Shown here in pieces: positions 14,588 through 26,147 of a stretch of DNA of 64,000 bases. Position numbers and translations under genes: made by a program. Where the stretch lies: the NCBI GenBank assembly GCA_029547805.1, contig JAKPOP010000010.1:209675-273674 (forward strand). The letters are read 5' to 3'. Every line of letters starts with the position of its first letter. The first letter of the stretch is position 1. The stretch is from Deltaproteobacteria bacterium. Lineage in GTDB: Bacteria; Myxococcota_A; UBA9042; DTJE01. The notes beneath the pieces were generated by a model. That model had not been told where the DNA came from and ran no database searches. It was given only the letters and a program-made list of their open reading frames with translations.

Positions 14588-14616
14588 GTCACCATCGAGG
14601 GACAATTTTTGTCACC
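14588..14616 (-). promoter_or_regulatory. Candidate enhancer (bEBP/PilR-like) binding sites: direct TGTCACC repeats 22 bp apart with embedded TTGTC..GACAA inverted repeat
   Basis: The sequence gttgTCACCatcgaggGACAAtttttgTCACCc lies 75-120 bp upstream of the sigma-54 -24 element, the usual distance for enhancer-binding proteins. Confidence 0.3.
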
Positions 14617-14785
14617 CGCCTCGGGGTTGGACTGTCGGGCCACGAACCCCGGCCGTCGACCCGAGGAACAGGGCTCGGCCCCTTCCGGCCGGCGGCGATT
14701 CCCCGATGCCTGCGCAGACTTTCCTCCTCCCTGTTCGCGGGGACCGCCATGGCATAATCGTCGCTCCGGGGGGGGGGAGGCGGTC

Positions 14786-16846
14786 ATGGGACGACCAGGG
14801 GCCTGGTTCGCGGCGATCCTGGTCGCCGTTGCGCTGCGGTTCGCCTCGGGGTGGCCCCTGGTGGCAGGACCGGAGGCCCTGCCCTTTCCCGATGACGCCC
14901 CCTACCACTGGATCCGCCTTGGGGCCCTGGCGGCAGGCCCCGTGGACCTCCAGGCCCCGGACCCCGGGTCGGCCTGGCCCGAGGGGGTCCGGGCACACTG
15001 GCCCTGGGGGTTCGATCTGGCCATGGCGGCACTGATGCGCCTTGCCGGGGCATCGGGGGACGCCCTCTTTCGATTCAGTTCCTGGGCCATTCCGATCCTG
15101 GGGGCGCTGCTGCTGCCCCTGGTCTGGGTGCTGGCCCGGCGCCTGGGCGGTCCGACGGTGGCGGCGATCGCGACGGCGCTGGCTGCCGTGATGCCGTTCC
15201 ACGTGCAGTACTCGATGGTGGGACGGGTGGACCACCACGTCCTGGAGCCCATCTCCCTGGCCGTGGCCGTGTCGGGCCTGCTTCCGGGCACCTCGTGGAT
15301 CGGTGCCGGGCTCTCGGGACTGGTCCAGGGGATCTCCTTCGCCCTCTTTCCGTCAGCCCTCTACCCGGTATTGGTGGTGCTGACCCTCGGAGGCCCCCTC
15401 GCCGCGTTGCGGCGCCCGGGACCGACCTCCCTCTGGGCCATCGTCACCTGGGCCGGTGCCGCAGCCTCCCTGACCGTCTCCCCCTATGCCCAGGACTGGG
15501 CCTTTTTCGCCCCCTCCCGGACCCACCTCGTGCTCACAGGCATCGGAGTCCTTGGAGTCCTGGGAACCGCCGTCGCCAGGCGCCTGTGTCCGGCGATTCC
15601 GCCATGGCGGTTCCCGCCGGCCGCAAGCGAAGACCAGGGAGGGGGAGCCGCCGCGAACCGTGCGCGGCGCGACGAAGGGGACGGAGCGCTTCCCCGCTGG
15701 CGGACGACCCGGGAGGCCATCGCGCTGGGCGTCGGCGTTGCGGCGGCCGGAGTCGCCGGGGCGGCGCTCTGGTGGGCCTTCCCGTCGTGGGTCGATTCCT
15801 TCCGCGAGGGGATCGCCTACCTGGGTGGAAGCGGCTTCGCCCGCCTCTCCTTCGAGGCCCGCCCCCTGCTCAGCGATCCCCTCCGGGCATGGACTCTCCT
15901 GGGGGTTGCCGCCCCTCTGGGTCTGGCGGGGATCTGGAGACTGGCCGGCCCCGCCGATGCCCCCCCGGGGGTCCGGGAGGCCCGGCAGCGGTTCGCCCTG
16001 CTGGCCCTGGCCCTCTCCGGCGGGGCGCTGCTGCAACGTCGGTTCGTGATGGTGGCCGTGCCCCTGCTGGCGCTGGCCATTGCCGAGGGTCTGGTCCTCT
16101 TGGGGTCCTGGGCGGGCGCTCGGCTGACCCGACGCGGCGTCCGACGCTCCCTGGTGGGGCTGCTGCTCGGGTCCGGCCTCGTCGCCATCCTGGTCCAGGA
16201 CGCCCGGCAGGCCCTCGGGCTGAATCCCTGGCAGCCTCGAGACCAGGCCTTTCTCCAGGCGGCTCGGCTGATCTCCCGGAGGGTCCAGGAGACCCCGGAC
16301 CTCCCCCCGATGGGGGCGCTGGCTCCCTGGGGCGCCGGGCACCTGGTCCGGTGGGCCTCGGGGCTCCCGGTGGTCTGCGACAACTTCTTCGGCGCCCCGG
16401 ACCACGACCGGGGGCTCCGGAACTGCCTCGCGTTCCTGCTCGAGACGGACGAGAACAGGGCGATCCAGATGCGGGAACGGCTCCAGGTCCGGTTCGCGTT
16501 GATCGCGCCGCCCCATCCCGAGGAGGTCCGGGTGATGGGCACCCTGATGGGCCTGCCGGAGGGATCGCTGGTGGACGACCGGGACCGGTTCACGGCCCGC
16601 TTCGCCCGGACGACCTGGGTCCGTCTGGGTCGCTTCGCCAGCGGCTCCGCCCCGGGGTCCCGGGGGCCTCTCGGGTCCTCCCTGGTCGGAAACGTTCTCA
16701 TCCGAGACCGCGATCGTGGGGAGGTCCAGGCGGAGGTCGCGGTGCTGGAGTTCGGAAGCGGCCAGCCCGGCTCCGCTGGGGGGCTTTACCCCGAGGTCCC
16801 CTCGGAAGAGAATGCGGCCCGTCGGATGCCCGGAGAAGCCCCGTGA
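14786..16846 (+). CDS. Polytopic GT-C membrane protein, STT3/AglB/PglB-like oligosaccharyltransferase homologue with degenerate catalytic motif
   Basis: ATG at 14786 has a G-rich RBS. About 13 predicted TM helices are followed by a 200-aa periplasmic domain. The first loop has FPDDAPYHWIR (compare STT3 DPWFNYR and AglB D-x-D..Y-H-x-R). A second GRVDHH loop follows. After the last TM the order ETPDLPP..APWGAGHLV..VVCDNFFG parallels STT3 TPxD..SWWDYGY..vDNnTW. Confidence 0.55.
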   Translation: MGRPGAWFAAILVAVALRFASGWPLVAGPEALPFPDDAPYHWIRLGALAAGPVDLQAPDPGSAWPEGVRAHWPWGFDLAMAALMRLAGASGDALFRFSSWAIPILGALLLPLVWVLARRLGGPTVAAIATALAAVMPFHVQYSMVGRVDHHVLEPISLAVAVSGLLPGTSWIGAGLSGLVQGISFALFPSALYPVLVVLTLGGPLAALRRPGPTSLWAIVTWAGAAASLTVSPYAQDWAFFAPSRTHLVLTGIGVLGVLGTAVARRLCPAIPPWRFPPAASEDQGGGAAANRARRDEGDGALPRWRTTREAIALGVGVAAAGVAGAALWWAFPSWVDSFREGIAYLGGSGFARLSFEARPLLSDPLRAWTLLGVAAPLGLAGIWRLAGPADAPPGVREARQRFALLALALSGGALLQRRFVMVAVPLLALAIAEGLVLLGSWAGARLTRRGVRRSLVGLLLGSGLVAILVQDARQALGLNPWQPRDQAFLQAARLISRRVQETPDLPPMGALAPWGAGHLVRWASGLPVVCDNFFGAPDHDRGLRNCLAFLLETDENRAIQMRERLQVRFALIAPPHPEEVRVMGTLMGLPEGSLVDDRDRFTARFARTTWVRLGRFASGSAPGSRGPLGSSLVGNVLIRDRDRGEVQAEVAVLEFGSGQPGSAGGLYPEVPSEENAARRMPGEAP

Positions 16847-18117
16847 AGGTCGCGGTCATCGGAGGCGGTTCCACCTATACGCCGGAGTTGATGGAGGGGC
16901 TCATTCTGCGCCGGGAGGAACTCTCGCTGGACGAGGTGGTGCTCCAGGACATCGACCTGGACCGCCTGGATCCCGTGGCAGGCTTCTGCCGTCGGATGGC
17001 GAGTCACCTGGGAGCGCCGGACCTCCGGGTCCGCGACACGCGGGACCTTCCGGAGGCCCTCTCGGGGGCCTCCTTCGTGGTGGTCCAGGTCCGGGTCGGG
17101 GGACAGAAGGCACGGCACCTGGACGAGACGCTTCCCCTGCGCCATGGCTGCATCGGCCAGGAGACGACGGGGGCCGGCGGCTTCGCCAAGGCGATGCGCA
17201 CCATCCCGGTCCTGCTGGAGATCGCCGAGGCGGTGAAGCGCCATGCCCCGGGGGCCTGGTGGATCAACTTCACGAACCCCTCGGGAATGGTCACCGAGGC
17301 CCTGATGCGCCACGGAGGCGTCCGGACCGTGGGCCTCTGCAACATCCCGATGGAGATGCGGATCCAGGCGGCGGAACTGCTGGGAGCCCCGGTCGAGGAG
17401 GTCCTGCTGGACTACGTGGGCCTGAACCACCTGGGCTTCGTCCGGGGCGTCCGGTGGCACGGGAAGGACCGCCTCCCGGACCTGCTGGCCTCCCTGGCGG
17501 AGTTCCAGGGACCCGCCAACCTCCCGGGCATCGAGATCCCGGGGGACGTGGTGGCCGCCCTCGGGGCCATCCCCTCGGGGTACGTCCGGTACTACTACTG
17601 CACCGAGGAGGTCCTCCAGGAACTGCAACGACAACCCCGGAGCCGGGCCGAGGTGGTAATGGACCTGGAGGAGCGACTGTTGGCCATCTATCGAGATCCG
17701 GCAGAGTTCCGCAAGCCGGACCTCTTGCAGCAGCGGGGCGGGGCATGGTACAGCCGGGTCGCGGTGGACGTGATGGCGGCCCTGCTGTCCCCGGTGCCGA
17801 GCATCCACGTGGTGAACGCCCGGAACGGGGACACGGTGCCGGGTCTGCCGGCGGACGCCACCGTGGAGGTGCCCTGCCGGGTGTCGGCCCACGGGGTGGA
17901 GCCGCTGCCGCTGACGCGGCGGGTCCCCGACGAGATGATGGGGCTGATCGCCCAGGTGAAGGCCTATGAACGCCTGGCGATCGAGGCTGCGGTGACCCGC
18001 TCGCGACGGTGGGCGCTGCTGGCCCTGATGGCCCATCCCCTGGTGCGGACGGCGGAGAAGGCCAGGGGCATCCTGGAGGAGATGACGCGGGCGGGAAGCA
18101 TTCCGCCCCTGTCCTGA
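16843..18117 (+). CDS. Glycoside hydrolase family 4 protein (NAD+/Mn2+-dependent 6-phospho-glycosidase family)
   Basis: The GTG start overlaps the upstream stop (GTGA). Translation VKVAVIGGGSTYTPELMEGLILRREEL.. is the hallmark GH4 N-terminus, and CNIPME (Cys-containing active-site region) is present. Only the last 424 aa of the 940-aa track ORF are genuine. Confidence 0.85.
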   Translation: MKVAVIGGGSTYTPELMEGLILRREELSLDEVVLQDIDLDRLDPVAGFCRRMASHLGAPDLRVRDTRDLPEALSGASFVVVQVRVGGQKARHLDETLPLRHGCIGQETTGAGGFAKAMRTIPVLLEIAEAVKRHAPGAWWINFTNPSGMVTEALMRHGGVRTVGLCNIPMEMRIQAAELLGAPVEEVLLDYVGLNHLGFVRGVRWHGKDRLPDLLASLAEFQGPANLPGIEIPGDVVAALGAIPSGYVRYYYCTEEVLQELQRQPRSRAEVVMDLEERLLAIYRDPAEFRKPDLLQQRGGAWYSRVAVDVMAALLSPVPSIHVVNARNGDTVPGLPADATVEVPCRVSAHGVEPLPLTRRVPDEMMGLIAQVKAYERLAIEAAVTRSRRWALLALMAHPLVRTAEKARGILEEMTRAGSIPPLS

Positions 18118-18189
18118 CGAGGACCTGCCCCGGGCCCCGTCAGGACGGGCCGGGGCCAGCGCCGGGCTTCGAAGAAGGAGGAGTGTCCC

Positions 18190-19443
18190 ATGAGCGAGGA
18201 ACTGGCACTGTTCGGAGGCACCTCGGTTCGCACGACCCCATTCGCCCCCTGGCCGTACTTCGATGACCGGGAACGGACACTGCTGATGCAGGCCCTGGAG
18301 TCCCGCAACTGGGGTGGCTATCCCTTTCCGAGTCCCCTGGCCGAGGACTTCGGGGAGCGGTTCGCGAAGGTCCACGGCGCCCGCCATGCCACCCCGTGCG
18401 CGAACGGGTCCGTCACGATGGAGATCGCGCTGCAGGCCGCAGGCATCCGGGCCGGAGACGAGGTGATCGTCCCGGCCCTGACCTTCATGGCCACCGCGGC
18501 CTGCGCCATCCGGGTCAACGCGGTGCCGGTCTTCGTGGACATCGAGCCGCGGAACTACTGCATGGACCCCGAGGCCGTCGAGGCCGCCATCACCCCGAAG
18601 ACCCGGGCCATCATCCCGGTGCACCTGGGGGCCAGCATCGCCGACATGGACCGGCTGCTGGAGATCGCCCGGCGCCACGACCTGATCGTGATCGAGGACT
18701 GTGCTCATGCCCACGGCGGGCAGTGGCGAGGCCAGGGCGTCGGGTCGATGGGGGACTTCGGGTCCTTCAGCCTCCAGTCGTCGAAACTGATGACCAGCGG
18801 CGAGGGCGGCGTGCTGACCGTCCGGGACGACGAGATGTTTGAGCGGTGCATGTCGCTGATCAACTGCGGGCGCAAGGAGCCTGGATACGACCGGTTCGAG
18901 GGGCAGTTGTTCGGGGCCAACTACCGGATGAGCGAGCTGCAGATCGCCGTGGCGATGGCCCAGCTGGAGCGCCTGGAGGAGGTGACCGAACGGCGGGCCC
19001 GGATGCACGCCCGCTTCAAGGAACTGCTCCATGGGGCGGTCCAGGGGCTCCGGGTGCTCGACACGGACCCCCGGGTCACCCGCCTCCACTGCTACCAGAC
19101 GATCATGCGCTACGACCCCGAGGCCTTCGCCGGCGTCCCCCGGGACCGGGTCCTGGAGGCCCTGGATGCCGAGGGCGTGCACTTCTCCGGCGATTTCTAC
19201 GAGCCGCTCTACCGCATTCCTCTGATGAACGCCACCAGCGACCGGTGGCCCATGCTTCGGGAGCGGTACGGCGATGGAATCCTGGGCCATCCGGAGATCT
19301 GCTGCCCGGTGGCCGAGAAGGCCGCCTACCAGGAGGGGGTCTGGATGCACTACCCCCATCTCTCGGGCACCCAGAAGGACCTGGAGGACATCGTCGAGGC
19401 GATCGCGAAGGTGCAGCGGCTGGCCCATCGGCTTCGCGGCTGA
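18190..19443 (+). CDS. DegT/DnrJ/EryC1/StrS-family PLP-dependent sugar aminotransferase
   Basis: Fold-type I sugar aminotransferase pattern: ..ATPCANGSVTMEIALQAAG..VIVPALTFMATAA..IPVHLGASIADM..DCAHAHGG..FSLQSSKLMTSGEGG (PLP-lysine region). Confidence 0.9.
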   Translation: MSEELALFGGTSVRTTPFAPWPYFDDRERTLLMQALESRNWGGYPFPSPLAEDFGERFAKVHGARHATPCANGSVTMEIALQAAGIRAGDEVIVPALTFMATAACAIRVNAVPVFVDIEPRNYCMDPEAVEAAITPKTRAIIPVHLGASIADMDRLLEIARRHDLIVIEDCAHAHGGQWRGQGVGSMGDFGSFSLQSSKLMTSGEGGVLTVRDDEMFERCMSLINCGRKEPGYDRFEGQLFGANYRMSELQIAVAMAQLERLEEVTERRARMHARFKELLHGAVQGLRVLDTDPRVTRLHCYQTIMRYDPEAFAGVPRDRVLEALDAEGVHFSGDFYEPLYRIPLMNATSDRWPMLRERYGDGILGHPEICCPVAEKAAYQEGVWMHYPHLSGTQKDLEDIVEAIAKVQRLAHRLRG

Positions 19444-19472
19444 AGAGCCCCAGGACTCGAAAGGAGGCTGCC

Positions 19473-20582
19473 ATGAGCGAGACGTTTGGTGTGGGTCTGG
19501 TGGGTTCGGGGTTCATCAGCCTCACCCACCTCCAGTCCCTGCGCACGATTCCGGGCGTCGAGGTCCGGGCCGTCGCCGACGTGGACCTGGACCGGGGACG
19601 GCTCTTCGCCGAGACCCACGGCATCCCGAAGGCCGTGGCCTCCCACCAGGACCTGCTGGAGGACCCGTCGATCCGGGCCGTCGTGGTGGGTGTGCCGAAC
19701 TGCTTCCATCACGGGATCACGATGGACGCCCTCCGGGCCGGACGGCACGTCATCTGCGAGAAGCCCCTGGCGCTGACGCTGGAGCATGCCGAGGAGATGG
19801 TCCGGACGGCCCGGGAGAAGGGCCTGGTGCTGGGCTATGCCGAGGAGCTGTCGTTCGTGCCGAAGTTCCTCAAGGCCGGGGAACTGATGCGGTCCGGCGG
19901 CATCGGCAAGCCCTACCTGCTGCGGCAGTGCGAGAAGCACGCCGGCCCCTACTCCCCCTGGTTCTGGATCCCCGAGCAGGCCGGCGGGGGCATCCTCATG
20001 GACATGGGATGTCACAGCATCGAGTGCATCCGCTTCCTGCTGGGCAAGCCCCGGGTGGCGTGGGTACAGGCCCACATGGGCACCTACCTCCACCGGGAGA
20101 TCACCGTCGAGGAGGACTTCTGCCTGGTCCTGATGGGCTTCGAGGACGGGACCATCGGGCAGGCCGAGTCCTCCTGGGCCCTGAAGGGGGGCATGGACTC
20201 GACGCTGGAGGTCTTCGGCACCGAGGGGGTCATCCAGGCGGACCTGCTGAAGGGCATGGGGATCCGGGCCTACTCGGAGAAGGGCTTCCCGGAGATGTGG
20301 GAGCCAAACCAGGGCTGGGTCTTCCCGGACTACGAGTGGCTGTGGAACAACGGCTACCCCCAGGAGGACCGGCACTTCATCGAGTGCATGAAGACCGGGC
20401 AGGTCCCAGTGGAGTCCGGGGAGGACGGACTGGCGGTGCTGGAGATCATGCTGGCGGCCTACCACAGCGCCGGGATCGGCCAGAGGGTGCGGCTGCCCTT
20501 CCGGCCCAGGGGCCTGACGGTCCCACCGGTGGACCTGTGGCTCCATCCCCGCCCGGAACTCGGTGCGGGACCGATTCCATGA
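19473..20582 (+). CDS. Gfo/Idh/MocA-family NAD(P)-dependent sugar oxidoreductase
   Basis: AAGGAGG RBS. Rossmann motif GVGLVGSGFISLTH. The EKPLALTLEHAEEMV motif is typical of this family. Confidence 0.9.
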   Translation: MSETFGVGLVGSGFISLTHLQSLRTIPGVEVRAVADVDLDRGRLFAETHGIPKAVASHQDLLEDPSIRAVVVGVPNCFHHGITMDALRAGRHVICEKPLALTLEHAEEMVRTAREKGLVLGYAEELSFVPKFLKAGELMRSGGIGKPYLLRQCEKHAGPYSPWFWIPEQAGGGILMDMGCHSIECIRFLLGKPRVAWVQAHMGTYLHREITVEEDFCLVLMGFEDGTIGQAESSWALKGGMDSTLEVFGTEGVIQADLLKGMGIRAYSEKGFPEMWEPNQGWVFPDYEWLWNNGYPQEDRHFIECMKTGQVPVESGEDGLAVLEIMLAAYHSAGIGQRVRLPFRPRGLTVPPVDLWLHPRPELGAGPIP

Positions 20583-20634
20583 GACGGGTGGGGGCCTCCG
20601 GAGGCGGTCCCCGGGGGCCCGACGCGAGGTGCTT

Positions 20635-20654
20635 CACAAGGCGTGAACCTTGTG
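20635..20654 (+). promoter_or_regulatory. Inverted repeat CACAAGG-n6-CCTTGTG immediately upstream of the sigma-r4 gene (candidate operator)
   Basis: Perfect 7-bp arms at 20635-20641 and 20648-20654, 20 bp upstream of the ATG at 20675. Confidence 0.25.
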
Positions 20655-20674
20655 CTAGGTTCCCAGCACCTTCC

Positions 20675-21202
20675 ATGCGGGCACGAATGGCTTCCCAGGA
20701 AACCAAGAGCGGAACTCGGCAGGGAAGACGAGGGGTTCGCACGATCGCGGCCCGGCGGCTGTCCAAGGTGGACCTCTCGGACGGCCTTCCTTTCGACCCG
20801 GAGGAACTGGAGCGGTTGCGGCCCCGAGTCCGGTCCGACTGCCTTGACGGTCCGAGGCCCTGTCCCTGGGTGGGGTGCAAGTATCACCTGTACCTGGACA
20901 TCAATCCGCGGACCGGGTCGATCAAACTGAACTTCCCGGACATCGAGCCCTGGGAGATGACCCAGTCCTGTGTCCTTGACATCGCCGACCAGGGCCCTGT
21001 GACGCTGGAGGACGTCGGCCGCATCATGAACCTGACCCGGGAACGCATCCGGCAACTGGAGGTGGCGGCGTCCGAGAAGGTCCGGTCCTCCCGGGTCGCC
21101 CTGGAGTACCGGGAGTTCCACCGGGAGACGCCCCGCACGGTCACCCGCCGCCCTGCTCCGGCCGTGGCGGAAGAGGAGGAAGAGGAGGCCGAGGACCTCT
21201 GA
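20675..21202 (+). CDS. Small DNA-binding protein consisting of a Cys/His cluster plus a sigma-70 region-4-like HTH; acidic C-terminal tail
   Basis: ..[18 protein letters not shown].. is followed by [23 protein letters not shown], which resembles the region-4.2 HTH of sigma-70 factors. It ends [11 protein letters not shown]. No sigma region 2 is present. Confidence 0.55.
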
Positions 21203-21420
21203 TCCCGGGACCGATGCCCCCGTCCCGCTGCTCTCCGTCCCCCCTCCCCCGCCGGTCTCCAGTCGACCCGTTCCCGGCCCAAGGATGTCCGGTTCCGTCC
21301 TCCCGGAAGGGTCCGGCCAGCGAGGAATTGCGTCCCGAGCGCAGCGGCGCGGCCTTGAAAGGGTGGGTCCGCTCCTCTACACTGTCCGCGGTGTCTGCTT
21401 CCGTGGCTGGGAGGTGGCAA

Positions 21421-24400
21421 GTGCGAGGCAGGAACTGGTGGATGAGCGCGACGCTGGTGCTGCTGGTTGCCTGCGACCAGGGCGGAGGCGGTTCCACCGA
21501 CGCCCGGGACCCTGGACCGGGGGACACGGCCGACGAGATCCCGGACCTCCCGGTCGTCATCAACCCCGATGACGGCCCTCGGGACGTCCGCGAGACCCTG
21601 GTCGAGGACCAGGGTTCGGGGCCTGACGATGCGGGACCGGACCTCCCGGCGGACCCGGGTGGAGACACCCTCGAACCGGGGGCCCCGGGCTGGCCCTGCG
21701 AGAGGGCCTCGGAGTGCAACTCCCAGTACTGCATGGACTCCCCCGATGGGAGGGTCTGCGCACAGATCTGCATCACCGAGTGCCCGGAAGGGGCGCGGTG
21801 CCTCCAGGTCCAGCAGGTCCCGGACCCCATCTTCGCCTGTGTCTATGTGTTCGCACGACTCTGCCGCCCGTGCATCCAGGACGCCGACTGCGTGGTGCCC
21901 TACGTCCCGGGAACCTCGGGATGCGTCCCCGGGGACCTGGGGTCCTTCTGCGGGGCCTTCTGCAACCGGGACCAGGACTGCCCTGCCGACTTCGGCTGCC
22001 GCGAGGTCCGCCTGGCCGGCGGCCTCCAGGTGAACCAGTGCGTACGCCTCCAGGGAGAGTGCGGATGCAGCCAGGCGGCCATCGAGGCCAAGGGCTGGAC
22101 GGTGTGCTGGGTCGAGAACGAGTTCGGCCGCTGCCGGGGCCAGCGGCGCTGCGAGGAGAACGGCCTGACCCCCTGCGATGCGCCCACCCCGGCCCTGGAG
22201 GCCTGCGACGGGGTGGACAACGACTGCAATGGCGTCACCGACGATATCGAGTCGAAGCCCTGCCTGGTGCGGAACGAGTACGGGTCCTGCCCCGGGCTCT
22301 CGGGCTGCCGCCTGGGTCAGGAGATCTGCGTGGGGACGCCGGCGGCCCCGGAGGCCTGCGACGGGGTGGACAACGACTGCGACGGCCTCACCGACGAGGA
22401 GGATGCCTCAGGGTGCCGCACCTACTACAAGGACCAGGACCAGGACAACTACGGGGTCCTCCAGGACAACCGGTGCCTCTGCGCCCCGCAGGCCCCCTAC
22501 CGGACCACCGCGGCCGGGGACTGCGACGACGAGGACCCGGAGCGGCATCCCAACCTGGCCGAGTCCTGCGACGGCAAGGACAACAACTGCAACGGGGTCA
22601 CTGACGAGCCCGGGACCCAGGGGTGCACGACCTTCTATCGGGACGGCGACGGCGATGGCTACGGAGTCACGGCCGACTCCCAGTGCCTCTGCGTGGCGAC
22701 GGCCCCCTATCTGGCCACCCAGGGAGGCGACTGCAACGATCAGAACCTGGACGTCCACCCGGACGCCCTCGAGACCTGCAACAGCCGGGACGACGACTGT
22801 GATCGGTTGATTGATCCGGAGGGGTCATACAACTGCCAGTCCTATTACTACGACGGGGACGGCGACGGTTTCGGGGCCAGGAACCGCCCGGCCCGGTGCC
22901 TCTGCTGGCCCGACAGGGCGGGGAAGTACACCGCCCTGACGAACACGGACTGCAACGACGGCGACCGGCAGGTCAGCCCGGCGCAACTGGAGCAGTGCGA
23001 GGACGGCATCGACAACGACTGCGACGGATTCACCGACGAGCCGGGCGCACAGGGATGCACGAACCGGTGGATCGACGAGGACCGGGACGGGTGGGGTGGC
23101 GGGGATCCCCTGTGCACCTGCCAGGCCGAGGCTCCCTACCTGGTAGAACGGGGCGGCGACTGCCGGGACCGCGACGCCTCGATCAACCCCGGAGAGAGCG
23201 AAGCGTGCGGGGACGGCATCGACAACAACTGCAACGGGGCCACCGACGAGGAGGGGGCCTCGGGGTGCGTGAACCGATGGGAGGACCTCGACCGGGACGG
23301 GTACGGCCAGGGCAGCCCCCGCTGCCTGTGTGCCGTCGAAGGGACCTACACTGCCCGTTACGGAGGCGACTGCGACGAGAACGACGCCACCCGGAATCCC
23401 GGGGCCTTCGAGGTCTGCGACGGCATCGACAACAACTGCAACGACGTCGCCGACGAGGAGGACGCCATCGGCTGCTCGCCCTGGTACTACGACTTCGACG
23501 GCGACGGCCACGGGGCCGTCGGGTCGGGGCGCTGCCTCTGCGGGTCGGCAGGCTTCTACCGGTCCCAGGATGACCGGGACTGCAACGACCGGGACCCCGC
23601 CATCGGTCCCCAGGCCACCGAGGTCTGCAACGGGGTGGACGACAACTGCGACGGGGCCACCGACGAGGAGAACGCGCAGCAGTGCCAGTCGTATTTCTAC
23701 GATGGGGACCGGGACGGCTATGGGTCGATGGTGGTGGCGTCCCGCTGCCTCTGCGGCCCGGACATCCCCGGGAAGTTCGACACCCGGAACGGGGGCGACT
23801 GCGACGACGGCAATGCCAATGTCCGTCCCGATCAGCCCGAGGTCTGCGAGCCCGAGGGTCAGGCCTCCCGGGACGACAACTGCAACGGCATCCTGAACGA
23901 GGAGAACGCCCTTTACTGCCTGAACTACTACTACGACGGAGACCGGGACGGTCATGGGACGCCTGATCGGTCCCCCAGATGCTTCTGCTCGGGTGGCAAC
24001 GCCGCCCTGAAACATGACAGCCGGTTCTCGGACGACTGCGACGACAACGACCCGCTGACCTCCGGAGGCCTGCTGGAACGCTGCAGCGACGGCAAGGACA
24101 ACAACTGCAACGGGGCCACTGATGAGGAGGGCGGAACCGGATGCCTCCCCTACTACCGGGACAACGACCGGGACGGCTACGGGGCCATCGGGGACTACCG
24201 ATGCCTCTGCGCGCCGGACCCCCTGGGGGTCTATGTCGCCTCGGAGGGCGGGGATTGCGACGACATGGACGGCAACACCCACCCCGGCGGAGCGGTCTGC
24301 GGCAAGGACGGCAACTGCGACGAAGCGCCCCTGGACCCGGGCGAGGCCTGCGACGACGGCAACGCCGTGTCCTGGGACGGGTGCACGAACTGCCAGTTCT

Positions 24401-25545
24401 CGGAGATCCGGGTCAACTCGCCCTATGTGAACGACCAGGTGTACCCGGCGGTGGCCCCGCTGGCCTCCGGAGGATACGTGGTGACCTACCGGACGGACCG
24501 GATCTCCACGAGTTACGACGTCGCCTTCCGGCTGATCGATGACCAGGGGAACCTGGTCGGCACCACCGAAAGCACCGCCAATGCCACCACGGCGGGCACC
24601 CAGCAGTTCCCCTCGGTCGCCGCGCTGCCCGGTGGCGGTTTCGCGATCACGTGGGAGTCCCTGGGCCAGGATGGCGACGGGAGCGGCGTCTATGGCCGGG
24701 TCTTCAACGGCTCCGGCTCTGCGACAAGCGGTGAATTCCTGGTCAACGGGACCACGCTGCTGGACCAGAAGGCGCCCCGGGTCGGGGCCCGGCCCGACGG
24801 GTCCCTGGTCGTGACCTGGCAGTCCTGGCTCCAGGACGGCTCTGAGTGGGGGGTCTATCTGCGCCGCATGGGTGTCGATGGAGTCCCCCTGGGGCCCGAG
24901 ACCCGGGTGAACCAGACGACGGCGGGGCCCCAGGACCAGCCTCGGGTCGCGGTGCTGCCGGACAACCGGTTCGTGATCGCCTGGAGGGGGCTCGTGTCCC
25001 GTGGAGGCTCCTCCACGGACCGGGACATCTTCCTGCGGCGCTACCTGGCCGACGGGACCCCAGATGGCAACGAGTTCGTGGTCAACGCCACCACGACCAA
25101 CGACCAGCAGGTGCCGGGCGTGGCCCCCCTGGGCAGCGACCAGGTGATCGTCGTCTGGGAGTCCTCGGGACAGGACGGCAGCGGAACGGGGGTCTACGGG
25201 CGCATCGTGGGAATGGACGGCACCTTCAAGACCAACGAGTTCCGGGTGAACTCCTATGCCTTGCAGGACCAGGGGATTCCCGCGGTGGCCTCCAACGCCG
25301 CTGGCCAGTTCGTGGTGATCTGGCAGTCGGCCTACCAGGACGGCGACGGCCTCGGGGTCTACTACCAACGCTATGATGCGACCGGCACCCCCATCGGCCT
25401 GGAGACCCGGCCCCACCTCCAGACGGCCAACGACCAGGCCCAGCCGGTCATTGCCGCCCAGAGCCTCCACTTCCTGCCGGTCTGGGCCTCCTTCGGACAG
25501 GATGGTTCGGGGTGGGGGATCTTCGCCCGGCGCCAGACCTGGTAG
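21421..25545 (+). CDS. Giant secreted lipoprotein with 13 tandem MopE-like putative metal/calcium-binding Cys-rich repeats, one myxo disulfide repeat and seven 55-aa C-terminal repeats
   Basis: A GTG at 21421 (or the ATG at 21442) gives [18 protein letters not shown] with a lipobox. Repeats follow: C..YY.D.D.DG[YFW]G....C.C..P..Y......DCDD.D....P.A.E.CDG.DN[DN]C[DN]G.TDE, then [15 protein letters not shown], then VN.T...Q..P.VA.L..GGFVV.W.S..QDGSG.GVYGRR ×7. Clear third-position GC bias. Confidence 0.85.
22171..24396 (+). repeat. Tandem array of about 13 coding repeats (about 200 bp each) encoding the MopE-like Cys-rich modules
   Basis: The recurring nucleotide blocks tgcgacgg(g/c)gtggacaacgactgc(g/a)a(c/t)gg.gtcaccgacgag encode CDGVDNDC[ND]GxTDE. 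Confidence 0.8.
24412..25542 (+). repeat. Seven about 165 bp coding repeats (putative beta-propeller blades) at the 3' end of the giant gene
   Basis: Periodic protein motif ..VNxxTxxxQxxPxVAxLxxGGFVVxWxSxxQDGSGxGVYGRRF.. repeated seven times up to the C-terminus. Confidence 0.6.
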
Positions 25546-25581
25546 TCCTCAGGGGGAGTCCTCAGGGGACCAGACGCGGCT

Positions 25582-25629: not shown

Positions 25630-26028
25630 TCACGCCTTGGCGCGGGGGGACCGGGAACGGGGCTTCCTGGGGGCGGCAGGGGCCTCCTTGGGCGGCTCGG
25701 GCTCCGCCGACGCCTCCCGCGGTGGGGCGGCCTCGGGCTTCGGGGCCGCTGCCTGGCGGGCCAGTTCCTCCTTGAGCCGAGCGACCTCCGTCTCCAGGCT
25801 CCGGACCACCGCCCGGAGGGAGGACATCTCGTCCCGGGTCACGAGTTCCAGCGTCCGGGCCACCAGGCGCACCTGGGCCTCCACGTTCTGCCGCATGTCG
25901 GCCTGGAGGTTCAGGGCCTGGGTCAGGAGCCCCTGGACCTTCTCGTCCTGGATCACCTTCAGGGCGATGGGCGAGAAACGCTGCAGCACCCCTTTCAGCA
26001 CGACGTCCCTCCACAACTCGAACACCAT
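25630..26028 (-). CDS. Phasin-family (PHA granule-associated) protein, coiled-coil with Pro/Ala/Lys-rich tail
   Basis: MVFELWRDVVLKGVLQRFSPIALKVIQDEKVQGLLTQALNLQADM..EVARLKEELARQ.. resembles TIGR01837 phasins. The ATG at 26028 is preferred over the TTG at 26061. Confidence 0.6.
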   Translation of the reverse strand: MVFELWRDVVLKGVLQRFSPIALKVIQDEKVQGLLTQALNLQADMRQNVEAQVRLVARTLELVTRDEMSSLRAVVRSLETEVARLKEELARQAAAPKPEAAPPREASAEPEPPKEAPAAPRKPRSRSPRAKA

Positions 26029-26147
26029 CGGTTCCTCCTGGATGATGCAACGGGCAGGCAATCATCCCAGACCCCCCGGACCCTGTCAAACCCCCTGGCC
26101 CGCCCCCATTTCGAGGGGGCCGTGCCATCTGGGAACGACAACTCGCA

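Follow-up and report, generated by a model that had tools for sequence, protein, structure and literature searches.

What could be the role of a bacterial lipoprotein whose repeats carry the Pfam name of a copper-binding protein? The question is raised by a gene on the forward strand of a stretch of 64,000 nucleotides, the whole of which is referred to below as the window, spanning positions 209,675 to 273,674 of contig JAKPOP010000010.1 (assembly GCA_029547805.1), from a Deltaproteobacteria bacterium that the GTDB lineage places in Myxococcota_A. The gene encodes a precursor of 1374 amino acids (aa), to which all aa numbers refer, and the mature protein begins at Cys18. A preliminary description of this DNA had reported the open reading frame (ORF) correctly but its product as 1375 aa long, the stop codon having been counted. 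The gene and the core of what had been noticed in it, a series of PF11617 motifs, are real and far beyond chance.

The protein is a fairly ordinary myxobacterial envelope lipoprotein of a known, functionally uncharacterised kind. The reading developed here, in which confidence is evenly balanced, is that a stalk stiffened by Ca2+ and disulfides would present a ligand-binding propeller away from the membrane in which the lipoprotein is anchored. The coordinates of all features are collected in Table 1.

The repeat array

The array comprises nine complete units with a period of 207–234 nt. Each of them starts with a small three-stranded sheet bearing the loop [YFW][YFW]-x-D-x-D-x-D-x-[YFWH]-G, continues with C-x-C and ends with the PF11617 motif, which makes up its second half and reads D-C-[ND]-D-x-[DN]...P...E-x-C-DG-x-DN-x-C-x-G-x-TDE, with a further Cys downstream. 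The nine loops are located at aa 338, 408, 478, 552, 622, 691, 761, 839 and 914, and six Cys are invariant in every one of the nine units. The 30-residue model of PF11617 (“Cu-binding_MopE”) matches the protein in 10 stretches and scores 260.9 bits (E 4e-79), the cut-off being 27, so that a HMMER search places the protein in this family far above the threshold, as had been proposed. The motif C-x-DG-x-DN-x-C occurs 11 times in the protein, degenerate copies included, two of them in the short modules that precede the array. The PF11617 stretches and the Asp and Cys content also agree with the acidic, Cys-rich modular build given in the preliminary description, whereas its 13 consecutive repeats of about 65 aa have to be replaced by nine units of 68–78 aa.

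Conservation of the array is strict. An alignment of 18 sequences, the window protein and 17 homologues from other assemblies that are 39–81% identical, brings all nine loops into register, and the 27 loop Asp (three in each loop) are invariant without exception. Of the 89 Cys of the precursor, 87 recur in 90% or more of the full-length orthologues. The mature protein (1356 residues) contains 88 Cys, enough for 44 disulfides, and 171 Asp (12.6%; 16.4% within the array), and has a net charge of −148. Identity between units amounts to 30–58% in protein and 49–64% in codon-aligned DNA; Tandem Repeats Finder detects no array in the gene, and the longest exact repeat measures 31 nt. The near-identical DNA repeats announced earlier are therefore not present.

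A model of aa 88–476 built with AlphaFold2 (AF2) from 14 orthologues reached a predicted local distance difference test (pLDDT) value of 89.5, with 90–95 in units 1–2, and a predicted template modelling (pTM) score of 0.52. In this model, the unit opens with a three-stranded mini-sheet (xYYxD, xRCLC, YxT), after which comes an acidic segment of irregular structure. A high pLDDT combined with a pTM of 0.52 describes confident small modules whose mutual orientation is undefined, so that the predicted arrangement is that of beads on a string.

The C-terminal propeller

The C-terminal 381 aa, passed over by the preliminary description, are predicted to form a seven-bladed beta-propeller. The AF2 model of this region, built from 47 homologues, is all-beta, with 24 strands in seven repeats (pLDDT 91.2, pTM 0.92), and the blades follow the consensus E-F-R-V-N-x-x-T-x-x-x-Q-x-x-P-x-V-A...G-x-F-V-V-V-W-x-S-x-x-Q-D-G-S-x-x-G-V-F-G-Q-R. 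Among the PDB structures retrieved by Foldseek, the propeller of CylK ranks first (7ron; template modelling score normalised to the query, TMq, 0.82; E 8e-12; rmsd 3.1 Å; 14% identity); the 7-bladed lectins CV39L and PHL come next, and then sialidases and GH93 and GH43 enzymes. The CylK structures (7ron, 7fh6) share the same seven-bladed fold at 13–14% identity, but the alignment spans about half of their 633–653-residue chains (the score normalised to the target, TMt, is 0.48–0.50). The likeness to PHL and CV39L (TMq 0.61–0.67, 12–15% identity) lies at the level of the fold, with no sequence relationship. No PDB chain is matched by the profile of the propeller family at E<=1, and there is thus no sequence homology that would make the window protein a Friedel-Crafts alkylase of the CylK type. 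The active site of CylK is formed together with its N-terminal domain.

Neither a Pfam family nor a solved structure was found for the family to which this propeller belongs. It is very large, since a profile search of 1.84 billion cluster representatives (50% identity) returns 64,975 proteins at E<=1e-3, of which 23,475 reach E<=1e-30; most members are annotated as “hypothetical protein”. The same propeller often stands alone, in secreted proteins of about 415 aa; it is also found fused to dockerin, RTX or type IX secretion system (T9SS) sorting modules, the phyla ranging from Myxococcota to Alphaproteobacteria and Chlamydiota. Some members carry many copies of it and are up to 7,900 aa long. 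Conserved in every blade are N-x-x-T-x-x-x-Q-x-x-P-x-V-A, W-x-S, Q-D-G-S and G-V-F-G-Q-R, and no blade-specific or single asymmetric site stands out in the conservation of the family. The most degenerate blades of the window propeller are 1 and 4. Because conservation is periodic from blade to blade, a repeated binding surface is favoured over a single active site. This periodicity, together with the fold neighbours, suggests that the ligand is most likely a carbohydrate or other repetitive surface polymer.

Two NCBIfam lipoprotein models show distant likeness to the family. NF053835 (“PDIAV motif-containing lipoprotein”) gives weak matches in 24 of 48 family members (best E 5.5e-8), and its “PDIAV” motif resembles the P-x-V-A of the blades; NF038383 (“LIC12048 family lipoprotein”) does so in 10 of the 48 (best E 8.6e-9). 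The window's own propeller matches neither at E<=0.01, and the relationship is a distant one. A third candidate, CopC (PF04234), scores 21.7 bits against a cut-off of 23.3 on the window propeller, is found in 19 of the 48 members at E<=0.01 and also appears in the precomputed annotations of several homologues. This identity was rejected as a spurious cross-hit, as the predicted fold is a propeller and not the beta-sandwich of the CopC type, although such a hit could falsely reinforce a “copper” annotation.

Relatives and head-swapping

More than 6311 proteins match at E<=1e-10, almost all of them from Myxococcota or “Deltaproteobacteria” metagenome bins, and the named relatives are called “putative metal-binding motif-containing protein” by NCBI. 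Literature searches on PF11617, “Cu-binding_MopE”, “putative metal-binding motif” and TIGR02232 retrieved no experimental work on the myxobacterial proteins. About 15 full-length orthologues (1344–1401 aa, 39–81% identical) have the same nine units, Cys pattern and neighbourhood. The window gene is therefore one orthologue group of the PF11617 repeat family, set apart by its C-terminal propeller. Its array had been described as an extreme expansion, a label that does not survive comparison: the 120 best homologues have a median of 12 DxDxD loops and a maximum of 28, against nine here, and 12–29 PF11617 stretches are counted in relatives versus 10 in the window protein.

The PF11617 array of the relatives is followed by other C-terminal heads: a PQQ-type propeller in one (P0027), a C-type lectin at the extreme C-terminus in another (P0034) and FG-GAP repeats in a third (P0090), while a paralogue (P0070) adds true thrombospondin type 3 (TSP_3) repeats. 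This swapping of heads is the strongest argument for regarding the array as a stalk or spacer.

Calcium or copper

Loops of the Dx[DN]xDG type bind Ca2+ in a near-identical manner across many unrelated folds (PMC3123361). The Cys-rich half of the unit can be compared with the C-rich domain of teneurins, which contains the sequence C-G-D-N-L-D-N-D-G-D-G-L-T-D-C (PMC3278476). The 1.5 Å structure of teneurin-4 has revealed that D840, D843, N844, D845, D847 and D851 ligate Ca2+, and two of the three teneurin Ca2+ sites (I and II) are described as thrombospondin type 3-like (PMC9058538). The motif C-x-DG-x-DN-x-C-x-G-x-x-DE is in register with these ligands, and nearly all of its 11 copies offer D/N, D, N/D, D/N, D/N and D at the corresponding positions. 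This register and the invariance of the 27 loop Asp point to structural Ca2+. Binding of Ca2+ by the stalk, judged from motif and analogy, is a well-motivated inference and more likely than binding of copper.

Thrombospondin type 3 repeats, the teneurin C-rich domain and LDL-receptor A modules are, like the units of the window protein, short acidic disulfide modules without a hydrophobic core, and teneurin likewise joins its C-rich Ca2+ domain with a beta-propeller (NHL). The ligand patterns D-x-D-x-D-G and C-x-D-x-x-D-N-D-x-D-G-x-x-D fall into register with the teneurin Ca2+ ligands (PMC9058538, PMC3278476). Cys spacing is not the same, a Cys replaces G846 of teneurin, the C-C pair is lacking, and D854 and D856, which belong to the third, LA-like site, are absent; the full set of six Cys paired 1-3, 2-5 and 4-6 and eight acidic ligands for three Ca2+ that defines the teneurin C-rich domain is not present. 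The resemblance is at the level of the motif and may be convergent. The repeat profile also gives a weak match (E 0.05) to residues 48–79 of mammalian acyloxyacyl hydrolase (AOAH; PDB 5w7a, chain B), along D-C-N-D-S-D...P-G...D-S-N-C-N-G; a Ca2+ site there in the crystal structure would make it the sole instance of the PF11617 motif with a solved structure.

The name “Cu-binding_MopE” is not evidence for copper, since the motif lies outside the copper site of MopE and looks like a structural calcium site. Against MopE* (2vov), the repeat profile matches residues 12–43/44 only (E 7e-4). The 46 residues at the N-terminus of MopE* cannot be seen in the crystal and its high-affinity Cu(I) site consists of His132, His203 and Kyn130, although immobilised metal affinity chromatography (IMAC) data suggested that its first 24 residues add to weak Cu(II) binding (PMC3423442). 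It has also been reported that CaCl2 stabilises MopE* against proteolysis (PMC3423442), and both MopE* and CorA contain a structural Ca2+ site (PMC3423442, PMC3912023). These methanotroph copper proteins, secreted or surface-located and thus extracytoplasmic like the window protein, share with it one copy of the motif D-C-N-D...P-G-A-x-E...DG-V-D-x-N-C-D-G. MopE has one copy versus 10–11 in the window protein, and in the MopE* crystal the shared one either lacks order or has been cleaved (PMC3423442). No similarity is detectable between the window protein and the beta-sheet core of MopE and CorA, where the His/His/kynurenine Cu(I) site is located, and a phmmer search of the whole protein against the PDB returns nothing at E<=1. 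The mature protein contains 8 His (0.6%) and 5 Met (0.4%). As the MopE* match falls outside the Cu(I) site and the protein is poor in His and Met, there is no positive evidence for copper, and the implication of copper in the preliminary description goes back to the Pfam name.

Membrane anchor, tether and sorting

The N-terminus consists of a basic n-region, a hydrophobic core and the lipobox L-V-A-C, in agreement with the rule [LVI][ASTVI][GAS]C with Cys at position 15–35; the rule, including K/R in the n-region and an uncharged h-region, was applied by eye. A lipobox-like motif is found at the equivalent place in most full-length orthologues, but not in P0020, P0045 and P0007, the last two of which are shorter than the other orthologues (1247 and 1161 aa), and 79 of the 120 best homologues have one. 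The protein is thus a lipoprotein, as had been stated, with Cys18 in a lipobox that recurs in orthologues. The acidic low-complexity linker reported after it is equally borne out by composition: the segment between Cys18 and the first Cys-rich domain contains 21.7% Asp, 18.8% Gly and 15.9% Pro, has a net charge of −16 and, to judge from these residues, is probably disordered.

Lys at position +2 has been associated with inner-membrane lipoproteins in Myxococcus xanthus (PMC3222651). It occurs neither in the window protein nor in any orthologue, which is compatible with an outer-membrane or surface location.

Proposed model and alternatives

According to the proposed model, the lipidated Cys18 would hold the protein in the membrane after export, and the 69-aa acidic linker would serve as the tether joining it to the rod. 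Folding would be oxidative and take place in the periplasm. The stalk would consist of approximately 900 aa of modules that have no hydrophobic core of their own and would be held by about 44 disulfides (three per unit), as well as by 2–3 Ca2+ ions per 70-aa unit, or some 20–30 per molecule, at the DxDxD loops and the C-x-DG-x-DN-x-C-x-G-x-x-DE clusters. By analogy with thrombospondin type 3 repeats, LDL-receptor A modules and the teneurin C-rich domain, this would give rise to a semi-rigid, strongly acidic rod, the length of which would be set by the fixed number of units. At its distal end, the C-terminal propeller would bind its ligand at sites repeated from blade to blade. The role would be one of adhesion or ligand capture, not of copper trafficking; Ca2+ binding and a role of the adhesion type are both plausible.

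Several observations weigh against this model. Position 6 of the loop is Gly in 8 of the 9 loops of the window protein but T, S, D, N or Q in orthologues, so that the loops are not canonical Dx[DN]xDG loops. An hhalign comparison of the unit profile with the C-rich peptide of teneurin-1 recovers the same register over 9 columns, the central stretch D-N-[DN]-x-[DN]-G-x-x-D, with a probability of 2.3%, which is not significant, and Pfam TSP_3 (PF02412), Ldl_recept_a (PF00057) and EGF_CA have no match in the whole protein at E<=0.1. When the model of aa 88–476 was compared with the PDB by Foldseek, no solved structure similar to the stalk modules was retrieved (best E 0.15). In fold, the head comes nearest to CylK, which is an enzyme and not a lectin. 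The neighbouring genes are housekeeping or sugar-modifying ones and give no functional clue. Finally, Asp at +2 would mean retention in the inner membrane by the Escherichia coli rule, and the +2 rule of M. xanthus may not transfer to the Myxococcota lineage studied here.

Alternative functions of the stalk have to be weighed against the same evidence. It is very unlikely that the PF11617 modules handle copper as MopE and CorA do, binding Cu(I) or Cu(II) at the cell surface in order to take it up or detoxify it. The strong family score, the match to MopE*, the IMAC hint of weak Cu(II) binding by its first 24 residues (PMC3423442) and the sub-threshold CopC score would fit such a function; yet the MopE* match is confined to residues 12–43, within the crystal-invisible segment and away from the Cu(I) site, the CopC score falls on the blades of a confidently predicted propeller, and phmmer finds no relative of the whole protein in the PDB. 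Moreover, there are 8 His and 5 Met among 1356 residues, the Cys are conserved and even in number per module, as disulfides would be, and no cop, cus or other copper genes adjoin the lipoprotein gene. The stalk could instead buffer cations at high capacity or be a structural part of the envelope or matrix; the 171 Asp of the protein would take up Ca2+ and other di- or trivalent cations, or cross-link the envelope or extracellular matrix, and the propeller would serve for attachment only. The strict invariance of Asp and Cys and the fixed nine copies speak for defined sites and a defined length and not for bulk charge, and the differing heads carried by the same stalk in relatives argue for a scaffold, so that this function is considered unlikely in spite of the extreme acidity of the protein and its array, the thousands of paralogous proteins in the same clade and the stabilisation of MopE* by CaCl2 (PMC3423442).

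As to the head, an enzymatic propeller, whether a glycoside hydrolase, a lyase or an alkylating enzyme resembling CylK, with the stalk as its tether, is quite unlikely. Identity to the enzyme structures is 9–15%, no PDB chain is found by sequence, and the Foldseek alignment covers about half of the 633 residues of CylK (TMt 0.50), even though CylK is the top fold match (7ron) and many sialidase, GH93, GH43 and rhamnose-lyase propellers follow at E 1e-9 to 1e-7. The conserved residues are the same in each blade, which indicates that they are structural; no blade-specific catalytic residues stand out, and degeneration is greatest in blades 1 and 4. A trivial explanation of the repeat number, collapse or expansion of the array during assembly, had been feared in the preliminary description, and its probability is judged to be negligible. 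The gene is repetitive as protein, and in the nearest genome, that of Myxococcota bacterium Go_SlDig_bin_299 (L001), the orthologue is cut by a contig start near the 31-nt repeat. At the DNA level, nevertheless, the units are only 49–64% identical and form no array for Tandem Repeats Finder, the 31-nt repeat lies outside the nine-unit array, the nine loops align in 18 sequences from independent assemblies, and L001 is colinear with the window through all nine units.

Wider implications

The proposed model of a stalk presenting a propeller can be extended beyond this gene, although in that form it becomes a tentative and rather doubtful idea. The 70-aa PF11617 unit would be the bacterial counterpart of the “calcium wire” of thrombospondin type 3 repeats and teneurins, serving throughout the Myxococcota as a universal stalk of up to about 29 units for interchangeable heads, and the propeller family would be a multivalent module for binding glycans or surfaces. 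The head of the window protein would be the first example to represent this family of 7-bladed propellers, which is very large, unnamed and structurally unsolved, and occurs in up to tens of copies in giant proteins. If both points were true, they would define a widespread, so far undescribed class of bacterial surface adhesins and would matter for the proposal that teneurin modules have a bacterial ancestry.

By itself, the gene changes little, being one among more than 6,000 similar proteins of uncultured Myxococcota. For a part of the myxobacterial envelope that is large and uncharacterised, the plan of anchor, tether, fixed-length stalk and swappable head nevertheless provides a model that can be tested, and the abundant propeller family merits a model of its own and a search for its ligand.

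Other modules of the protein

Two further regions separate the linker from the array. All the Cys of the N-terminal Cys-rich domain are invariant among 15 orthologues, and AF2 models it with pLDDT 80–92; none of the Pfam or NCBIfam families matches it, and neither sequence nor fold searches retrieved a relative in the PDB. The gene has a single long exact DNA repeat, the 31-nt sequence mentioned above, which lies in the two short modules that follow, at 22197–22227 and 22350–22380. The contig of L001 starts inside the orthologue, about 20 nt past the position of the first copy of this repeat. If short-read assembly had met with trouble anywhere in the gene, it would be at this 153-nt duplication, marked by the 31-nt repeats, and not at the nine-unit array.

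At the other end of the array, a single “myxo disulfide” repeat had been described. A partial repeat of this kind is indeed present, but it does not reach the TIGR02232 cut-off: the excised segment aa 936–1000 scores 20.1 bits against 20.8, over profile positions 3–28 of 38, and TIGR02232 is not reported in the whole-protein scan at E<=0.1.

Table 1. Features of the lipoprotein gene and its product, in coordinates of the window.
Feature	Protein position (aa)	Coordinates	Strand	Basis or description
Sigma-70-like promoter candidate, TTGAAA-17-TACACT		21355..21383	+	consensus match alone
Shine-Dalgarno-like GGGAGG		21409..21414	+	sequence reading; 6 nt 5' of GTG
Coding sequence of the 1374-aa lipoprotein	1-1374	21421..25545	+	GTG start; TAG stop (25543-25545)
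Lipoprotein signal peptide, lipobox LVAC, Cys18 predicted to be acylated	1-18	21421..21474	+	sequence
Acidic Asp/Gly/Pro-rich linker without Cys (69 aa)	19-87	21475..21681	+	composition
N-terminal Cys-rich domain	88-226	21682..22098	+	two ~60-aa copies of a P-C-x3-[SD]-[DE]-C ... C-P ... C-V module
Two short modules	227-333	22099..22419	+	beta-hairpin N-E-[FY]-G-x-C, then Ca-type motif ending [ND]-G-x-TD[DE]; without DxDxD loop
Nine tandem units of 68-78 aa	334-984	22420..24372	+	unit starts at aa 334, 404, 474, 548, 618, 687, 757, 835, 910
Partial cysteine-rich acidic (“myxo disulfide”) repeat	965-990	24313..24390	+	overlaps degenerate end of unit 9
7-bladed beta-propeller (381 aa)	994-1374	24400..25542	+	seven ~55-aa blades, no Cys; predicted

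The gene and its surroundings

The GTG at 21421 is supported as the start codon by the GGGAGG and the promoter-like site upstream of it (Table 1), by the called start of the closest orthologue (P0001), which is the equivalent GTG, and by the frame-specific third-position GC content (GC3) of the ORF, which is 0.87. A scan of the region for the promoter consensus returned 3 sites, versus 0.2 expected.

Upstream (14609–21202), the gene is preceded in order by genes for a faintly STT3-like membrane protein, a GH4-like enzyme, a DegT aminotransferase, a Gfo/Idh/MocA oxidoreductase and a small Sigma70_r4 protein (20699–21202). Downstream lie an oppositely oriented BMFP-like gene and then the gene for glyceraldehyde-3-phosphate dehydrogenase (GAPDH), with Peptidase_MA_2, TonB and ExbD farther away. 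Gene order is kept around the orthologues, and the upstream part of it even at 43–53% identity (loci L009, L011 and L012). A functional operon with these neighbours was considered and rejected, as the order reflects lineage-wide synteny of housekeeping genes and the lipoprotein gene has a promoter-like site of its own. The presence of sugar-modifying genes beside a heavily exported protein could hint at glycosylation.

The rest of the 64-kb window is core chromosome (LigA, SbcCD, NrfD-cytochrome), and a regular-expression search of all six frames found no other MopE-type gene in it. No terminator-like hairpin was found between the lipoprotein gene and the convergent gene at 25630–26061. From the stop codon of the lipoprotein gene on, the 13-nt unit AGTCCTCAGGGGG is directly duplicated at 25544–25568 (1.9 copies, 100% match).

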